A stretch of DNA of 64,000 nucleotides from a bacterium (GTDB lineage: Bacteria > Patescibacteriota > Minisyncoccia > Phycocordibacterales > UBA918). Made by a program: the position numbers and the translations under genes. Below are positions 1 to 18,802 of this stretch, one piece after another. The DNA is taken from assembly GCA_043719295.1 (NCBI GenBank), contig JAYSUD010000006.1, positions 17,318 through 81,317 on the forward strand, in the 5' to 3' direction. Position 1 is the first letter of the stretch, and every line of letters begins with the position of its first letter. Below the pieces are notes generated by a model, which saw only the letters and a list, made by a program, of their open reading frames with translations, did not search any database and was not told the origin of the DNA.

Positions 1-1662
1 TGTTTGCAAGATTTTTGCATCACTAAGTGATACTCCCGTTGGCAAAAATTCACTTGGTGTAGGTGGATTTACCCCAAACGCTCCTAAGTACAACATGTTT
101 GCAGCTAGGTATGCAGCGGGTGGATTTGGGTGAACAAAATCGGATGTCAACATATTTTCTGCAGTTTGTCCATCATCTCCGTTTCCATAGAGTTCGGTGA
201 ATTTTTTATAGGCTTCAGTATATGCCATACCAGAGGCTGCATAGCCTGCAGTATTTCTTTTCGCTGTTGCTGTATAAAATGTATGGGCATTAGAAGCAAC
301 TGTTTCTCCCTTACTAATACTAATCATATTATCAGGAGCCCAAATACCGTAGAGCATTACGTCAGTGCCGTTTTCTTTTGCAAGTGTTGCAAATAAATCG
401 GTATACTTTTCATAATCAGCTTGGCTACCACTAGTTAGTAGACCGTCGCCACTTTGCAACACGACCAAATCGTAATCTCCTGTCCTCAGAAGATTTTTTG
501 GATCCATAGCTGCTGGCTTACCTGCCCAATTCCATAGTTCACTCATTACTGATCCTCCTATGACTCCATAAGCACTACTTGCCCCAGCACTGTTACGTTG
601 AAGCATTCGCATAAATATACCTGAAGCACTATCAGCTCTTTCTCTACTTACAGCAGCAGTTGTATACGAATTCCCCACAAAGAGAACTTTTGGATTGGAT
701 TTGATTCCAGAAATACTGCCACTGCCAACAGTTCCACCGCCACCTGGGGTTGGTGTAGGCGTTGGAGTTCCGTTTGGTGTTGAATCACAGACATTTCCCA
801 AACCATCTTTATCCGTATCTGTCTGCGTTGCATTACTTATAGCTGGGCAGTTATCTACTGTATCGGCCACCTTGTCACCATCTGTATCTTTAGGCACAGT
901 ACCTATCGGTGGAGTTGTTGTCCCTGTAGGTAAAGGCCGGTAATCAGTATCACAAACGTTACCAATACCATCTTTGTCTTTATCCCATTGTCCTGCGTTT
1001 CTCACTTTTGGACAATTGTCTTTTACATCAACTACACCGTCACCATCTGTATCGGCTGTTGGACTTGGTACTGGAGTTCCGCTTGGGGTAGTGTCACATA
1101 CATTACCAACACCATCTCTGTCTGTATCAAGTTGGTCTGTATTACTTACAAGTTTACAGTTATCGATTGCATCAGCAACAGTGTCTCTGTCTGTATCAAC
1201 AATAGTGACGACGCTTGAGCCGGTTACTTTCAATCGATGTGTTACTGCCCATCCATCAGCACCTGTAGCAAAATTTACTTGTACCCAAGTAAAACCGCTG
1301 GCTGTCTGTGGATTTGAACCTATTACCACGCCCGTACTTCTAAGTAGCTGTGTTCCAACAAGTGTTCCTGAAAGACCAAATGAATTACGTACATTTACAT
1401 CTTGTATAGCTATCACCGTATCTCCAAGTTTTGGTGACGACAAATTTATTCCACCAGTGGTTGGAGTCGTTCCTGTTTGTACACCTTGTAGTTGTGCAAT
1501 AAGCGCAGTTAAATCATTAATTTGTTTTATAAGAGATTCTAAATTTACAGTTGCGGAATCTTGTACAGTTGCTGCTTTTACAGTAATACCTCCAAATAAA
1601 AAGATGGCAACTGCCAACAATATAACTACTTTTGTATGAAAAAACGGAATTGATTTTGACAT
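1..1662 (-). CDS. Giant secreted multidomain protein, paralog of the 1872..5528 gene. It is 3'-partial and runs off the left edge. It carries a signal peptide, an SH3b-like domain, TSP3 Ca-binding repeats and a C-terminal SGNH/GDSL-like hydrolase domain.
   Basis: This gene is absent from the ORF track because no stop lies in the window. Translating the minus strand from ATG 1662 gives MSKSIPFFHTKVVILLAVAIFLFGG...LTALIAQLQGV...VNVRNSFGL...GFTWVQVNFATGADGWAV. DTDxDGxGNxCD repeats follow, then ...LFVGNSYT...VLQSGD... The nucleotide sequence is clearly paralogous to 1872-3000. The plus-strand ORFs at 695..943 and 974..1639 are mirror artefacts of this gene. Confidence 0.75.
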   Translation of the reverse strand, partial: MSKSIPFFHTKVVILLAVAIFLFGGITVKAATVQDSATVNLESLIKQINDLTALIAQLQGVQTGTTPTTGGINLSSPKLGDTVIAIQDVNVRNSFGLSGTLVGTQLLRSTGVVIGSNPQTASGFTWVQVNFATGADGWAVTHRLKVTGSSVVTIVDTDRDTVADAIDNCKLVSNTDQLDTDRDGVGNVCDTTPSGTPVPSPTADTDGDGVVDVKDNCPKVRNAGQWDKDKDGIGNVCDTDYRPLPTGTTTPPIGTVPKDTDGDKVADTVDNCPAISNATQTDTDKDGLGNVCDSTPNGTPTPTPTPGGGGTVGSGSISGIKSNPKVLFVGNSYTTAAVSRERADSASGIFMRMLQRNSAGASSAYGVIGGSVMSELWNWAGKPAAMDPKNLLRTGDYDLVVLQSGDGLLTSGSQADYEKYTDLFATLAKENGTDVMLYGIWAPDNMISISKGETVASNAHTFYTATAKRNTAGYAASGMAYTEAYKKFTELYGNGDDGQTAENMLTSDFVHPNPPAAYLAANMLYLGAFGVNPPTPSEFLPTGVSLSDAKILQT

Positions 1663-1696: not shown

Positions 1697-1737
1697 TAAA
1701 AACAGGGATAGCAGGCTGTGCCTGATATCCCTCCTAT
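1697..1737 (-). promoter_or_regulatory. Conserved 5' leader element of the giant-protein gene. On the mRNA strand an AGGAGGG box is followed by an interrupted hairpin (GGGAUA-CAGGC-aca-GCCUG-UAUCCC) and then UGUUUUUAG. This is a candidate attenuator.
   Basis: The hairpin plus U-tract lies about 45 nt upstream of ATG 1662. The same architecture recurs at 5562..5603 with a compensatory change in the inner stem. Confidence 0.5.
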
Positions 1738-1814
1738 CTTCAAATCATATACCCTACCAATAATTTATAACTGTGGCATGTGTGGATAAGTAAACTATAT
1801 CATTTTAATATTTT

Positions 1815-1855
1815 AAAAAAATTAATACCGCACGTAAGTGCGGTATTAATTTTCT
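1815..1855. terminator. Bidirectional rho-independent terminator downstream of the 1872..5528 gene. The stem is ATTAATACCGCAC-gtaa-GTGCGGTATTAAT (13 bp) with flanking A/T runs.
   Basis: A perfect inverted repeat lies immediately after the stop at 1872. Confidence 0.7.
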
Positions 1856-1871
1856 ACAGTACTTGAACTAA

Positions 1872-4800
1872 CTATTTATACCAACTACTATTTGTTTGGG
1901 TATTGTGCGACTTATGTGCCTCAATCGCAATCCCTTGAAGTATTTTTGCATCAGTAAGCGTCACCCCAGCAGGCAAAAACTCACTTGGTGTTGGTGGATT
2001 TACTCCAAAAGCTGCAAGATACATCATATTTGCTGCAAGGTATGCAGCAGGTGGAGCTGCATGAACACTATCGTACGTAAGCATTGTTTCAGCAGTTTGC
2101 CCATCATCACCTTTTCCATAGAGTTCAGTGAACTTCTTATGAGCCTGAGTATATGCCATACCCGCAGCTGCATAACCTGTATTATTACGGATTGCTGTTT
2201 TTTCATATCCTGCATCTAAAGCAGCTGCAACAGTGTCTCCTTTGCTGATACTGATAAGCTGATCAGGTGCCCATACTCCGTATAACATGACATCTGTGCC
2301 ATTTGCTTTTGCTAAATTAGCGAAGAGATCAGTGTGAATTTCATAACTACCAGGTACCGTACTTTGCAGAATATCATCTCCACTTTGTAGTACTAAAAGA
2401 TCATAGTCACCAGAGGCAAGTCGTGTTTTTGGATTATATTGTTCAGGTTTACCTGCCCAATTCCACAACTCACTCATAACTGACCCTCCGATTACAGACA
2501 AATCATGAGTTGCACCAGATGCCTTCTGCTTTAGCATGCGCATAAACAAACCTGAAGCACTGTTTTCACGGATTCCTCCAGGAGCTGCGTAGGTATATGA
2601 ATTACCAACGAAAAGTACTTTTGGATTGGTTTTAAGACCAGTAATACTACCTCCGATTACGGCTCCTCCATCTGGAACTGGTACTGGTGTTCCGTTTGGT
2701 GTAGCATCACACGCATTTCCGATACCATCTTTATCAGTATCTGCTTGTGTTACGTTACTTACAATTACACAATTATCTGTTGCATCGGCAATAGAGTCCC
2801 CATCTGTATCTTTCGGTGCAGTTACCACAGGCGGGGTTGTCGTAGCGACAGTACGATAATCAGGGTCACATACGTTACCAATACCATCTTTGTCCTTATC
2901 CCATTGTCCTACATTCCGCACTGTTGGACAGTTGTCATTAGTATCAAGCACTCCATCAGCATCGGTATCGGCTGTTGGGCTTGGTACAACTGATGATGTT
3001 AATTTGCCCAAAAGCTCTAATTCCATTGCTTGAACCCTCGCTGACCCTGAGGTACCTTGTACAGTCACTTTCACATACCGTCCGGTAGTTTTAATTGAGC
3101 GCTCAAACCACGCCATGCCATATGCATTAGAAGCAGTAAATATTTTTCCATATGCAGCCCCAGCGGTTGATTTAGATTCAAAACTCCAAGTCTTCGAGTG
3201 CCAAGTACCGTTGGTGTCGCCAAAAATTCGAGTAGAGGTAAGATCATAATTTGCACCAAGGTCAAACTCTACCCAAAAGGTTTCACTTACTTCTGAACCC
3301 GCTGAACATCCAAGCGTCACAGCTGTACATCCGTCAAATAAATTATCAGTTATATGATCTTTTTCGAAGTTATTTGATGATGCAATTATTTTCGATGCAC
3401 TGAGCAAATTACTTGGATTTGCACTTGGGGGAAGCGTGACCGTACCATTTGGAGTTGCATCACAAACATTTCCAATCTTGTCACCATCGGTATCAAGTTG
3501 ATTGCTATTGCTTACAAGCACACAATTATCTATAGAATCTGCAACAGTATCTTTGTCTGTATCGGTGACTGTTCCTCCAGTTGTGCTTGTTTTACTTATA
3601 CGTGTAGTAACTACCCAACCATCTGTTCCATTTGCAAAATTAACCTGCACCCACGTGTAACCACTTGCTGTCTGTGAAACAGAACTGATCACGGTACCAG
3701 TACTTCCTAAAGGTTGAGAACCAAGGATGCTTGCAGTAAGTCCATATGAACTACGTACATTAACTTCACTGATAGCAGTAATAGTATCGCCGAGTTTGAT
3801 TAAAGCAGTTGGCACTTCGCCGCCTGTTGTTCCACCACCGGTTGTTGCACCAGGTGTTGGAGTAGCTCCATATAACGCAGTGTCTTTATAATTAGGATAC
3901 TTACCTTCAATCGAAATAGCTCGAGGAGGCCAGTTGCTTAAACCTGTATTTGAGAGAAGTGGTCGTTTTGGTGCACTTGCAGAATTGTAGCTAAACGGAC
4001 TTCCTGCGCCTTTTGCAAAAACTTTTCCAGCTTCATTGAGTTCAAGGTCAGTAACGTTGGCAACCATGCCCGCATTCCAATTTTTAAGGAGCTTACTAAA
4101 TGAGTCAGAATCACTCGCAGCTATACTCATCATGACATTGTTGTTCATGACAATATTTCTGGCTGTCATGAAGGCAGTTTTTGCTGCACCTTTAAGCGTT
4201 TGAGATTCGTCACTAATTGATACACCGTTCTCTTTTGTAAAGGCATTTGTGTACCCAATTATATTGTCATGAACTTCAATATTTTTAAGTGCTAGTTCTG
4301 GCTTATTAGCTGTACCATTATTTTCAATTTCATTAAGACCAATTGATGGAGCGGCAATAAGATTATTAGTACTTATGTTTTCATATCCTCCTGAATAAAT
4401 GAATGTGTTATGGTGCACTTTAGCATTTTGCATATCACCAATTGAAATACCTTTCGGATTGGTTGAATACACAACGTTGTTAAAGTACTGGAAATCTCTA
4501 ACAAAATCGCCTGCTTGACCAGCATTTCCACGACCAAACATATTTTGCATATGACTCGCACCCGCTTCAAGGAATACGTTATTACTCATTACAACTCGCT
4601 CAATACTTTCGTCAGTACCAGCAATATAGTATTGAATACCATCTACATGATCACCGTCAGTTGCTCCCGCCTTTAATTGACTTCGATGAACCCCCATAGG
4701 TGTATTAAATTGATTGTTATCAATCAACACGTCTTGACTACCCACAATCCTCATAAAATCTGAACGGACGTGGTGAATATGAGAGTTCTTAAGAGTTACG

Positions 4801-5528
4801 TGATCAGACTCTGAAGAAACTAGATTAATGATGTAATCAGCCATATCAACAGTGTCAAATGTTACATATGATGAATCAAATACATGTACTCCTCCACCAT
4901 AGGGATAGTTTGAAATTGGCACATCACGACTCGTTGTTTCTGAAGCCAGTACTCCTTCTGTTGATTTGAGTACATGTCCACGAAATACCGTACCGGAAAA
5001 AGTAATATTTTTACTATTTCGTATAGTCACCATCGGGCTACCATATCCACGTCCCACCTCATTGTCGGTGATTTTTACATTTTCAATACGAAGTCCTGTA
5101 CTACCCGTGACCTGAAAATTCTTTGTAAGAATTACAGCTGGATTGCTCGCAACCGCTGAACGAATGATTACTGGATTCGTCGCAGAGAAAACTCGGTTGG
5201 TAACAGAATATCTTTCTCCCAGAGCATCGAGGTCATATGTACCCGGAGAAAGTGCAATAATATCTCCTGACACTGCCTTTTTTAGAGCTGCATCAAATTC
5301 AGCTACAGTTGCTACAGTTTGTGTCCCAAGAACCTGGGGGACACCCTGAAGTTGCGCAATGAGTGCCTTTAGTTCTACAATCTGTTTTGCAATTTGTTCA
5401 AGGCCAGCAACCGAAATGTCACGTGCCACTGATGCCTCTGCATTTGAAATAGTATTTCCAAATAGCAGGACTGTAATTATTGAAAGTGTGAGTACTTTTG
5501 TATATAAAAATGAGATTGTTTTCAACAT
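1872..5528 (-). CDS. Giant secreted multidomain surface protein of 1219 aa. It carries a signal peptide, an SH3b-like domain, a right-handed beta-helix, a discoidin (F5/8 type C)-like domain, TSP3 Ca-binding repeats and a C-terminal SGNH/GDSL-like hydrolase domain.
   Basis: ORF 1872..5630. The likely start is MLKTISFLY at 5528, followed by a hydrophobic signal peptide. Recognisable motifs: LKALIAQLQGV; VNVRSSYGL...GYTWVQVNFANGTDGWVV (SH3b-like); repeated NN..H.N beta-helix turns; DTDGDKIGNVCD, DKDKDGIGNVCD and DTDKDGIGNACD (TSP3); and LFVGNSYT...DLLVLQSGDD (SGNH). Confidence 0.8.
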   Translation of the reverse strand: MLKTISFLYTKVLTLSIITVLLFGNTISNAEASVARDISVAGLEQIAKQIVELKALIAQLQGVPQVLGTQTVATVAEFDAALKKAVSGDIIALSPGTYDLDALGERYSVTNRVFSATNPVIIRSAVASNPAVILTKNFQVTGSTGLRIENVKITDNEVGRGYGSPMVTIRNSKNITFSGTVFRGHVLKSTEGVLASETTSRDVPISNYPYGGGVHVFDSSYVTFDTVDMADYIINLVSSESDHVTLKNSHIHHVRSDFMRIVGSQDVLIDNNQFNTPMGVHRSQLKAGATDGDHVDGIQYYIAGTDESIERVVMSNNVFLEAGASHMQNMFGRGNAGQAGDFVRDFQYFNNVVYSTNPKGISIGDMQNAKVHHNTFIYSGGYENISTNNLIAAPSIGLNEIENNGTANKPELALKNIEVHDNIIGYTNAFTKENGVSISDESQTLKGAAKTAFMTARNIVMNNNVMMSIAASDSDSFSKLLKNWNAGMVANVTDLELNEAGKVFAKGAGSPFSYNSASAPKRPLLSNTGLSNWPPRAISIEGKYPNYKDTALYGATPTPGATTGGGTTGGEVPTALIKLGDTITAISEVNVRSSYGLTASILGSQPLGSTGTVISSVSQTASGYTWVQVNFANGTDGWVVTTRISKTSTTGGTVTDTDKDTVADSIDNCVLVSNSNQLDTDGDKIGNVCDATPNGTVTLPPSANPSNLLSASKIIASSNNFEKDHITDNLFDGCTAVTLGCSAGSEVSETFWVEFDLGANYDLTSTRIFGDTNGTWHSKTWSFESKSTAGAAYGKIFTASNAYGMAWFERSIKTTGRYVKVTVQGTSGSARVQAMELELLGKLTSSVVPSPTADTDADGVLDTNDNCPTVRNVGQWDKDKDGIGNVCDPDYRTVATTTPPVVTAPKDTDGDSIADATDNCVIVSNVTQADTDKDGIGNACDATPNGTPVPVPDGGAVIGGSITGLKTNPKVLFVGNSYTYAAPGGIRENSASGLFMRMLKQKASGATHDLSVIGGSVMSELWNWAGKPEQYNPKTRLASGDYDLLVLQSGDDILQSTVPGSYEIHTDLFANLAKANGTDVMLYGVWAPDQLISISKGDTVAAALDAGYEKTAIRNNTGYAAAGMAYTQAHKKFTELYGKGDDGQTAETMLTYDSVHAAPPAAYLAANMMYLAAFGVNPPTPSEFLPAGVTLTDAKILQGIAIEAHKSHNTQTNSSWYK

Positions 5529-5561: not shown

Positions 5562-5603
5562 TAAAAACGGGGATAACCAGCTTAGCCGGATACCCCCTCC
5601 TAT
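5562..5603 (-). promoter_or_regulatory. Second copy of the conserved leader hairpin plus U-tract. On the mRNA strand it reads AUAGGAGGGGGUAUCC-GGCU-aag-CUGG-UUAUCCCCGUUUUUAG. This is a candidate attenuator.
   Basis: The position and structure match 1697..1737. The inner stem differs by a compensatory pair: CAGGC/GCCUG versus CCGGC/GCUGG. Confidence 0.5.
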
Positions 5604-5702
5604 ACAGACATCATATACCTCAACTTGCATTTAAATTTCATCTCTTGTGGATAACAAATAGTTCGAATCTGTACCTATATAAGTTAAGTATGTACAAAAA
5701 GT

Positions 5703-5748
5703 GACCGGTGCACTTTCCCTCCTGTAACAGAGCTCAAGTGCACCGGTC
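5703..5748 (-). terminator. Terminator-like hairpin with a 13-bp perfect stem, GACCGGTGCACTT/AAGTGCACCGGTC. Its loop carries CCCTCC on the plus strand and AGGAGGG on the minus strand. On the minus strand it is followed by ACTTTTTGT.
   Basis: The stem is a perfect inverted repeat. It sits between the divergent genes 5528(-) and 5809(+). Confidence 0.4.
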
Positions 5749-10586: not shown

Positions 10587-11060
10587 CTACCAAGCGAAGT
10601 GGGCGAAAGCTCGGTTAGCTTCAGCCATCTTGTGTGTATCTTCCTTCTTCTTGACCGCATTTCCTTCTTCTTTTGCTGCCATCATGATTTCTTTAGCAAG
10701 TGCCTTGAACATTGGAACTCCTTTTTGACCGCGTGCTGCAGTGATTATCCATCGGAGGGCCAACGCATGACGTCGTTCAGGTCGTACTTCTCGTGGTACT
10801 TGGTAGTTTGCTCCACCTACACGCCGCGAACGTACTTCCATCTGTGGACCTGCATTTTTAAGTGCTGTATCAAATACTACCAATGGGTCTCCCCCTCCCT
10901 CTTTTGCATTTTTGATTTCTTCAAATGCTGCGTATACAATTTTTCGAGCTGTTTCTTTTTGGCCTCGCATCATCACATAGTTGATGAGCTTTTCTACTTC
11001 CGTTGATGCAAACCTGATGTCAGGCTGCACAACGTTTCGATTTTTAATTGGTCGTCTCAC
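10587..11060 (-). CDS. rpsG: 30S ribosomal protein S7.
   Basis: [17 protein letters not shown]...[19 protein letters not shown]...[12 protein letters not shown], a full-length S7 match. Confidence 0.92.
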
Positions 11061-11240
11061 AATATTGTTTCTTAATTTGAGTAATAATTAAGAATGAGAA
11101 ATATGGCATTCCACACTTTCATTCTTCGCATATTTTGATGCCGAAGGTTTCCCTTGCATCTCGTCCGTTATCTATAGCGAATATAGACTATTTATTTGTA
11201 ATCTGCTGGTTGGTATATCTAAAGCTCACAATTCTTTTTA

Positions 11241-11345
11241 AATTGGATGAGTTGCGCGAAGCACAAGGAAATTTTTGCGACACGTACGTTGTAGTACGTA
11301 GAGCAGAAATTTTCGTAGTGCGACAAAGCAAACCGCCAATTTTAG
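11241..11345. repeat. Family A structured repeat, copy 2, lying in the rpsL-rpsG intergenic region.
   Basis: AATTGGATG...GAAATTTTTGCGACACGTACGTTGTAGTACGTAGAGCAGAAATTTTC... aligns with 10474-10585. Confidence 0.7.
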
Positions 11346-11350
11346 AAGAA

Positions 11351-11764
11351 TTATTTCGCTTTAGGCATCTTTGCTCCGTACCGAGATCTCCCCCGTCGTC
11401 GCGCATCTACCCCTGTTGAGTCGTACTTTCCACGAACAATGGTGTATTGCACACCAATGTCTTTTACCTGTCCACCACGCACCAAGACCACAGAGTGCTC
11501 TTGTAGTGTGTGACCAATACCTGGGATGTATGCAGTAATTTCCTGACCGTTTGAAAGTCGAACACGCGCAATCTTTCGAATCGCTGAGTTCGGCTTACGT
11601 GGAGTCTTTGTAGTTACTCTCGTACATACCCCACGCTTGAATGGCGAGTTGTATTTGTTTGGCTTGTTTTCAATTGAGTTGAAACCAAGTTGTAGTGAAC
11701 CAGTCTTAGACTTGTTCGCTTTTGTACGTCGGGGTGTCTTTGTTAATTGATTTATTGTTACCAT
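11351..11764 (-). CDS. rpsL: 30S ribosomal protein S12.
   Basis: The start is [25 protein letters not shown]. The C-terminus is ...[41 protein letters not shown]. Confidence 0.92.
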
Positions 11765-11900
11765 AAAGCCCGCATACTGTACTACAAAGCACGATTTCTG
11801 CAAGTCTCTCTACCTGTTTTTTAGTTCTTAATATTGAGTATTGTCACAATATACGCAAAAACACCCTAAACGGGTGTTTTTAGACACACTAATTACAAAA

Positions 11901-18400: not shown

Positions 18401-18802
18401 GTTGGCCCCGAACGTAATGTCGGGGCCATTTTCATGATAAGGGAACCCTACCATTGCACGCTATTGTTTTCACACTAGCGCGCGTGAACGCAATATGGTC
18501 AACATGGATGACGGGGGTGTTGCAGACAGGTGCGTTTTCGCCTCGAATCCACAGCATTCCGTTTTGCCTCACTGATCCGACGACCATTGGTGGTGCCGAT
18601 AAGTTTCATGAGGAATCTCCTTGTTACCGAGTCATCATTAAAATGAAAACATAAAAAGCCAGGACTCGGGGAACTGGCCTACTCGTACGATACCTGTATA
18701 CGTGTTCTTCGTCAATACAGCGAAAGTGCAGATACAAAAAACCGCTCGTTTAAAAAATAAACGGCGGCTGGTGCGGGAGCGAATTCCCCCGCACCATATA
18801 CT

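Follow-up and report, generated by a model that had tools for sequence, protein, structure and literature searches.

The window, by which we mean the whole 64-kb stretch of DNA analysed here, contains at one end two genes for secreted proteins on the minus strand, each preceded by a hairpin with a short U-run (Table 1). The gene 2 protein has a signal peptide, a beta-helix, an SH3-like domain, an F5/8-C domain and thrombospondin type 3 (TSP3) repeats, and its C-terminal domain of about 250 aa is also found in gene 1. Gene 1, for which the full length of 573 aa was obtained from a complete copy on another contig of the same genome (L007), encodes a signal peptide, an SH3-like domain, TSP3 repeats and the conserved C-terminal domain, and is a shorter paralog of gene 2 with 67% identity across the C-terminal half. 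An initial sequence-only reading had described both as giant-protein genes, which is appropriate at most for gene 2 (1218 aa) and not for gene 1 with its 573 aa. Given that an intrinsic terminator (1816-1848) lies between gene 2 and gene 1, each of the two genes has its own promoter and leader.

Table 1. Coordinates of the features around gene 1 and gene 2. Hairpins are given in the mRNA sense (minus strand).
Feature	Position	Strand	Details
Gene 1	1..1662	minus	3' end clipped by window start; ATG 1662-1660
U5 tract of copy 1	1698..1702	minus	after G1703; tail GUUUUUAG
Leader hairpin of gene 1 (copy 1)	1704..1732	minus	12-bp stem plus C-G closing pair
-10-like hexamer TATGAT of gene 1	1744..1749	minus	11 nt to A1732, 12 nt to invariant GGG
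Upstream box TTATCCACA of gene 1	1781..1789	minus	31 nt before -10 hexamer
Intrinsic terminator of gene 2	1816..1848	minus	stem 1823-1848, T-run 1816-1822; strong
Gene 2	1872..5528	minus	1218 aa; ATG 5528-5526
U5 tract of copy 2	5563..5567	minus	1 nt (G5568) past stem
Leader hairpin of gene 2 (copy 2)	5569..5597	minus	G·U pairs, one U·U mismatch, loop UAA
-10-like hexamer TATGAT of gene 2	5610..5615	minus	kept in all 7 leaders
Upstream box TTATCCACA of gene 2	5646..5654	minus	30 nt before -10 hexamer
Orphan terminator-like hairpin	5696..5748	minus	upstream of gene 2 promoter

The orphan hairpin (5703-5748; 13 bp, a 20-nt loop with ACAGGAGGGA, then ACUUUUUG) lies at a place without any minus-strand gene that it could terminate. 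It aligns with the gene 2 terminator at 1823-1848, to which it is homologous, and is probably the leftover of a tandem duplication; the homology suggests a duplicated unit made up of terminator, box, promoter, leader and gene. Downstream of gene 1, at a distance of 65 nt, there is a third paralog, P0009 (391 aa, L007 4539-5714), without a hairpin of its own, and the same pattern is present in L012, where a 586-aa gene is followed by P0008. In the loci that were read, genes with their own promoter region have the hairpin and closely trailing paralogs are without it.

Hairpin copies and their relatives

In copy 1 the stem extends from A1732-U1704 to C1720-G1716 with a single U1725·C1711 mismatch and the loop ACA (1719-1717), and the end of the stem is located 41-42 nt from the start codon in both copies. 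The sequence AUAGGAGGG is found at 1737-1729 in copy 1 and at 5603-5595 in copy 2. The 51-nt segments fold at -19.4 (copy 1) and -19.5 kcal/mol (copy 2), with z = -3.7 and z = -2.8, respectively, when compared with dinucleotide shuffles, and for the isolated stems the values are -17.3 and -18.1 kcal/mol. The hairpin and U5 tract that the sequence-only reading had placed ahead of both genes were thus recovered, with stems of 12-13 bp followed by a G and U5 in each copy, and the compensatory change it had reported between the copies is real (A1723-U1713 in copy 1, C-G in copy 2). A simple terminator scan missed both window copies, solely due to the internal mismatch. Two paralogous copies with one double change are, taken alone, weak evidence; with five further distinct versions found upstream of orthologous genes, the comparison of sequences makes a solid case for the hairpin.

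These versions came from a protein search, which gave five orthologs of gene 2 with 70-77% identity, and from a search with the C-terminal domain, which gave shorter family members. The hairpin was found about 45 nt before the start codon in every gene 2 ortholog examined (L001-L006), so that the absence from orthologous leaders that would count against the element was not seen, and it was also found ahead of the 586-aa gene, which resembles gene 1 (L012-L014). Besides this genome, the hairpin family spans five other metagenomes, and a scan of a genome collection identified one relative, a Candidatus Kaiserbacteria MAG with a leader identical to that of L004. On this basis the organism is a CPR/Parcubacteria bacterium similar to the Kaiserbacteria. 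At all the orthologous loci L001-L006 a small GFA-family gene (PF04828) is the divergent neighbour, and with a -10-like hexamer of its own that ends 6 nt from its start codon it is probably leaderless; the window has other genes in its place.

The two window copies and the five other versions were aligned as seven distinct leader sequences (A4). In a helix of 12 pairs, 96.4% of the cells are standard pairs, compared with 37-59% when the 3' partners were slid by 1-3 columns as a control, although the seven leaders share ancestry and such conservation counts are not independent. Six of the pairs are invariant, five vary on one side via G·U, and double changes occur in a single pair, which is U-A in five leaders, A-U in one and C-G in one. 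Nine G·U cells pair on the mRNA strand only and no cell favours the opposite strand; the covariance model described below scores 49-60 bits on the sense strand and 13-31 bits on the reverse strand. The sense-only G·U cells and the low reverse-strand scores speak for a hairpin in the RNA and against an operator in double-stranded DNA. When RNAalifold was run on complete leaders, which extended from the -10 region to the first 15 nt of the ORF, it gave the same 12 pairs and no other conserved structure. In shuffled alignments the observed covariation score was reached in 6 of 500 trials and the number of pairs with a change on both sides in 130 of 500. Since the seven sequences are related and a single pair has double changes, these covariation statistics are suggestive and not overwhelming. 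Selection on an RNA structure, which had been proposed from the two window copies, is well supported by the retention of the helix in seven distinct leaders, the U-A/A-U/C-G pair and the sense-only G·U cells. The outer arms GGGATA/TATCCC are nearly invariant with an arm spacing of 14-15 nt, and the loops of the seven versions are ACA, UAA, UGUU, GUUA, GAUA, GAUAA and AUU.

A covariance model (R1), a check suggested earlier for the two copies, was built from the seven leaders and used to search the window with filters off and then all fetched loci. In the window there were two matches only, copy 1 at 54 bits and copy 2 at 49.5 bits, with the next best match at 14 bits, and in the fetched loci the known copies of the relatives were recovered and no others. 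The hairpin is therefore neither a genome-wide repeat nor a general leader motif and is specific to this gene family. No hairpin was found in the available sequence of the distant relatives that share only the C-terminal domain, namely L015/L016 (a 2209-aa gene and P0011), L011 and L017/L018 (in L011, L017 and L018 the contig end cuts off the start of the upstream gene), which indicates that the element is confined to a narrow clade.

At gathering thresholds Rfam identified only two tRNAs in the window, and at E <= 10 the best match around the locus was toga_FSE with 23 bits compared with a gathering threshold of 40 (E = 0.3). A protein-pattern scan of JGI metagenomes gave no relatives, and a DNA-pattern scan of metagenomes for the hairpin followed by a T-run gave more than 120 matches, all of them unrelated generic terminators and none with the upstream box. 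The metagenome matches to the arm pattern are ordinary terminators, many of them bidirectional, and the arms of the hairpin fall within normal terminator sequence space. The element, which is not in Rfam, belongs to a familiar class of leader elements and is clade-restricted and lineage-specific. An unrelated hairpin, GGGATATTCGGTAGAACCGAATATCCCTATTTT, followed by the conserved ACATGGAGAATCAGCTATCTACTTCTGAACAAATGCTCCA, was seen in 11 marine metagenome contigs (L027, L031, L034, L047, L082, L084, L093, L096, L107, L122 and L138). It is located about 40-120 nt from the contig end in nearly all of them, the upstream DNA differs between them, and the hairpin resembles the border of a repeat present in multiple copies.

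Promoter elements, predicted 5' end and translation signals

All seven leaders contain a -10-like hexamer with the consensus TA(T/C)(A/G)(A/G/T)T, the end of which is 10-13 nt from the invariant GGG of the stem, and the stem begins 9-12 nt past the hexamer. A box with the consensus TT(A/G)TCC(A/C)CA is located 29-31 nt upstream of the hexamer in 7/7 leaders, and the 29-31 nt between the two are poorly conserved DNA. The box, at about -51..-43, is probably a transcription factor binding site. It was also observed that the box equals the DnaA-box consensus TTATCCACA exactly in three leaders and that it occurs twice in the 64-kb window, only at these two sites.

Among the window ORFs, 22/60 have a TAnnnT hexamer that ends 5-11 nt ahead of the start codon, clearly peaking at 6-9 nt, a pattern typical of leaderless mRNAs. 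Given this hexamer-to-start spacing of 6-9 nt at leaderless genes, the transcription start of the hairpin leaders is predicted 1-6 nt before the stem, and the hairpin would then form the extreme 5' end of the transcript. With the hairpin in this position no antiterminator could be encoded upstream of the stem. Downstream of the T-run there are about 40 nt of divergent, AU-rich and unstructured leader, and in the seven leaders (alignment A2, inspected by eye) no conserved TAnnnT was seen 5-11 nt before the ATG that would indicate a second promoter. Reiterative transcription on the G-run, as for pyrG, was considered and rejected, since the G-run lies 10-17 nt past the -10 hexamer and is too far away for a start.

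An SD-like 4-mer at -20..-4 was found in only 5 of the 60 non-overlapping window ORFs, and the organism appears from its sequence to be SD-less and largely leaderless. This would fit the loss of the anti-SD reported in many Parcubacteria, about half of which are without the anti-SD motif (PMC9297842). One exception in this SD-poor genome is a 36-aa ORF, MKLIGTTNGRRISEAKRNAVDSRRKRTCLQHPRHPC, at 18499-18609 (minus), located in a 500-nt gap upstream of comEC; it has a perfect AAGGAG at 18617-18621, at the right distance, and such a canonical SD is odd here.

The AGGAGG of the leaders is confined to this genome. All relatives have AUUGGGGG or AUGGGGG at this place, the orthologs reading UUGGGGG where this genome has AGGAGG. 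The suggestion that the hairpin sequesters an SD-like AGGAGG was accordingly not supported, given that the motif is not conserved in orthologs and that SD-like 4-mers are so rare among the genes.

Terminator features of the hairpin

With 12-13 bp, a loop of 3-5 nt and -17 to -19.5 kcal/mol, the hairpin has the stem-loop of an intrinsic terminator. The orthologous versions, which have 12-13 pairs and the tails ATTTTAGTTA and ATTTTTAAAA, pass a generic terminator scan, and the terminator-like shape described in the sequence-only reading therefore held up, with versions in orthologs called as terminators and a U-run conserved in position. A run of U4-5 is present in all seven leaders, in which the T-run begins 2-3 nt past TATCCC with a G or A separating the two. 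Its position is fixed in 7/7 leaders while the neighbouring leader sequence diverges; the chance of such a placement is 0.08 per sequence, calculated from independent base draws with the composition of the leader. The U-tail score is 2.3-2.4, compared with 3-5.5 for the real terminators in the window, and this weaker U-tail suggests partial termination.

Attenuation of the classical type, which had been offered as an explanation for the hairpin and U-tract, was not supported, as there is no conserved alternative structure (RNAalifold), only about 1-6 nt are predicted before the stem and no uORF is shared across the hairpin in the three leaders scanned. Attenuation by a leader peptide was rejected after a scan for uORFs in W1, W2 and L001, three of the seven leaders (W1, W2, L001, L002, L004, L005 and L012), in which the gene 2 leader had no ORF starting with ATG, GTG or TTG across the hairpin and the ORFs of W1 and L001 were in different frames. 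Among the 19 window proteins scanned, Pfam identified neither a NusG paralog nor a sigma factor nor an RNA-binding regulator, and the precomputed Pfam matches for the genes of the related loci, which cover these neighbourhoods, contained no NusG paralog. In total, neither an antiterminator structure nor a leader peptide nor a candidate factor was found in the leaders and neighbourhoods scanned.

Possible functions and related systems

The hairpin is a real control element of modest general significance. The reading that we favour, tentatively and with rather less than even confidence, is a promoter-proximal intrinsic terminator that is leaky or relieved by a factor, and that also caps the read-through mRNA as a protective 5' hairpin. 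It takes as its basis a hairpin at the RNA level, its conservation and sense-strand specificity, its fixed distances from the -10 hexamer and the U-run, and the absence of an alternative structure. From these features we infer the transcription start, termination, the control of read-through and stabilisation. The promoter, made up of the box at about -51..-43 and the -10-like hexamer, would direct transcription from a start a few nt before the stem, and the stem-loop would constitute the first 35-40 nt or so of the mRNA. The GC-based hairpin of 12-13 bp with its G or A and U4-5 would act as a sub-optimal intrinsic terminator, and only polymerases that read through, via leakiness or via a putative trans-acting factor, would make the unstructured, AU-rich and SD-less leader of about 45 nt together with the gene. 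The read-through mRNA would retain the 5' hairpin, which may hinder 5'-end-dependent decay.

An alternative that falls only a little short of this reading in probability is that the hairpin serves purely as a 5'-terminal mRNA stabiliser without any termination and blocks decay of the RppH, RNase J or RNase E type. On leaderless mRNAs the initiating ribosome would normally cover the 5' end, and this long-leadered mRNA would be exceptional, as such leaders are in an SD-poor and largely leaderless genome. In favour of this alternative, the stem at 9-12 nt past the -10-like hexamer would leave an unpaired tail of about 1-6 nt, the hairpin is the sole conserved structure in the leader, and the genes encode secreted and probably abundant surface proteins. 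The tight spacing to the -10 hexamer is a need of a 5'-protective hairpin and not of an attenuator, so that the near-5' position fits a pure stabiliser better. However, a stabiliser does not need the U-run, and yet the U-run is fixed in position in 7/7 leaders amid diverging sequence; a terminator requires a fixed U-run and a GC-rich stem base, and a stabiliser requires neither. In addition, the predicted tail of several copies is 4-6 nt, a length that is reportedly (Emory, Bouvet and Belasco, 1992) the upper limit for protection in E. coli. There is also precedent for protective 5' hairpins: stem-loops at the 5' end stabilise the ompA, papA and aprE mRNAs, and RppH requires a minimum of 2-3 unpaired 5' nt (PMC3997798).

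It is less probable that the terminator acts, in an SD-less and mostly leaderless CPR bacterium, as a dedicated on/off switch for the surface-protein family, with read-through only when a putative factor modifies RNA polymerase; such an antitermination system would be new for Patescibacteria. The putative factor could be loaded in a Q-like manner at TT(A/G)TCC(A/C)CA, or it could bind the GGGAUA/UAUCCC stem.

Only a slim chance is given to the view that GGGATA...TATCCC, perhaps together with the TATCC-containing box, is a DNA operator bound by a dimeric factor over the start site, the RNA hairpin being incidental. The nearly invariant outer arms and the presence of a third TATCC-like box at a fixed upstream distance agree with an operator. 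On the other hand, the nine G·U cells are A·C mismatches on the other strand with none reversed, the inner part changes (U-A, A-U, C-G) and stays self-complementary, which a spacer does not require, the arm spacing varies between 14 and 15 nt, and the U-run is strand-specific. Very unlikely indeed is a relic terminator that was copied in a tandem duplication and has no function of its own; although the duplicated unit seems to hold an upstream terminator, the orphan at 5703-5748 being homologous to that of gene 2, the hairpin is located downstream and not upstream of the conserved promoter elements, it persists in all the orthologs examined although the leader has otherwise diverged, and there are pairing-preserving changes. 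Control of translation by AGGAGG, through a sequestered or standby ribosome-binding site or a 30S-binding stabiliser of the STAB-SD type, is barely credible: AUAGGAGGG is present in both window copies, partly inside the 5' arm, and neither start codon adjoins an SD, but the orthologs carry AUUGGGGG or AUGGGGG, the motif is found 67-75 nt upstream of the start codon, an SD-like 4-mer precedes just 5/60 window genes and around half of the Parcubacteria have no anti-SD motif (PMC9297842), so this control appears largely refuted by the ortholog sequences.

Compared with known systems, the leaky terminator with a protective hairpin has its closest precedent, by analogy, in the glpD leader of B. subtilis, which combines a terminator with a role in mRNA stability (Glatz et al. 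1996, cited in PMC3997798). As in attenuators of the glpD type, there is a GC-based stem-loop with a U-run within the 5' leader, the hairpin is predicted to stay near the 5' end of the read-through mRNA, and it is conceivable that a trans-acting factor, and not a leader peptide, exerts the control. Unlike in these attenuators, no RAT-like antiterminator sequence or binding protein is identifiable here, the stem is only a few nt from the predicted start, and the U-tail has 4-5 U with an offset of 1-2 nt. The leaders also resemble those of E. coli ompA and papA and B. subtilis aprE in that a stable hairpin, here predicted at or close to the 5' end of the mRNA of a probably abundant exported protein, is followed by an unstructured AU-rich leader. 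They differ in that ompA, papA and aprE are without a conserved U-run and show no sequence similarity, and that aprE depends also on its ribosome-binding site, which this organism seemingly does not use.

A LoaP-type control, for which a search for a NusG paralog had been advised, agrees with the leaders in the general arrangement of a small leader hairpin and an intrinsic terminator before long genes. In the dfn leader controlled by LoaP, a hairpin with a UNCG loop is separate from a downstream NusA-dependent terminator and a loaP gene is located nearby (PMC12691694). In contrast, there is a single hairpin here instead of a separate hairpin and terminator, and none of the loops is UNCG, so the proposal was not sustained; no NusG paralog was found among the neighbours examined, and LoaP is known from Bacillota, Actinomycetota and Spirochaetota and not from the CPR. 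A likeness to the B. thuringiensis cryIIIA STAB-SD (Agaisse and Lereclus 1996, cited in PMC3997798), namely an SD-like AGGAGG far upstream of the start codon and, by prediction, close to the 5' end of the mRNA, applies to this genome only, whereas the SD-like sequence is absent from the orthologs and the genome is SD-poor. The similarity with phage lambda Q and tR', a conserved DNA box at fixed spacing within the promoter region and a terminator soon after the start, is purely architectural: no Q-like gene and no sigma-dependent pause element were identified here, and the box is upstream of the -35 location and not between -35 and -10.

The locus represents a compact cis-regulatory module, with a box, a -10-like hexamer, a terminator-shaped 5' hairpin and an SD-less leader, which precedes genes for secreted TSP3-repeat proteins with a plausible role at the cell surface or in host contact. 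To our knowledge, almost nothing is known about gene regulation in the CPR/Patescibacteria, which are uncultivated and host-dependent. A regulated terminator, if true, would point to a new antitermination factor in the CPR radiation, and a stabiliser, if true, would show how an organism of the leaderless type protects its rare leadered mRNAs. Elsewhere in the window, rpsL-rpsG (10587-11803, minus) is followed by unrelated secreted-protein genes and not by fusA. The S7 gene was also observed upstream of large surface-protein genes in L005 (1-29) and L015 (2329-2796), and rpsG next to surface-protein genes may be a conserved neighbourhood.
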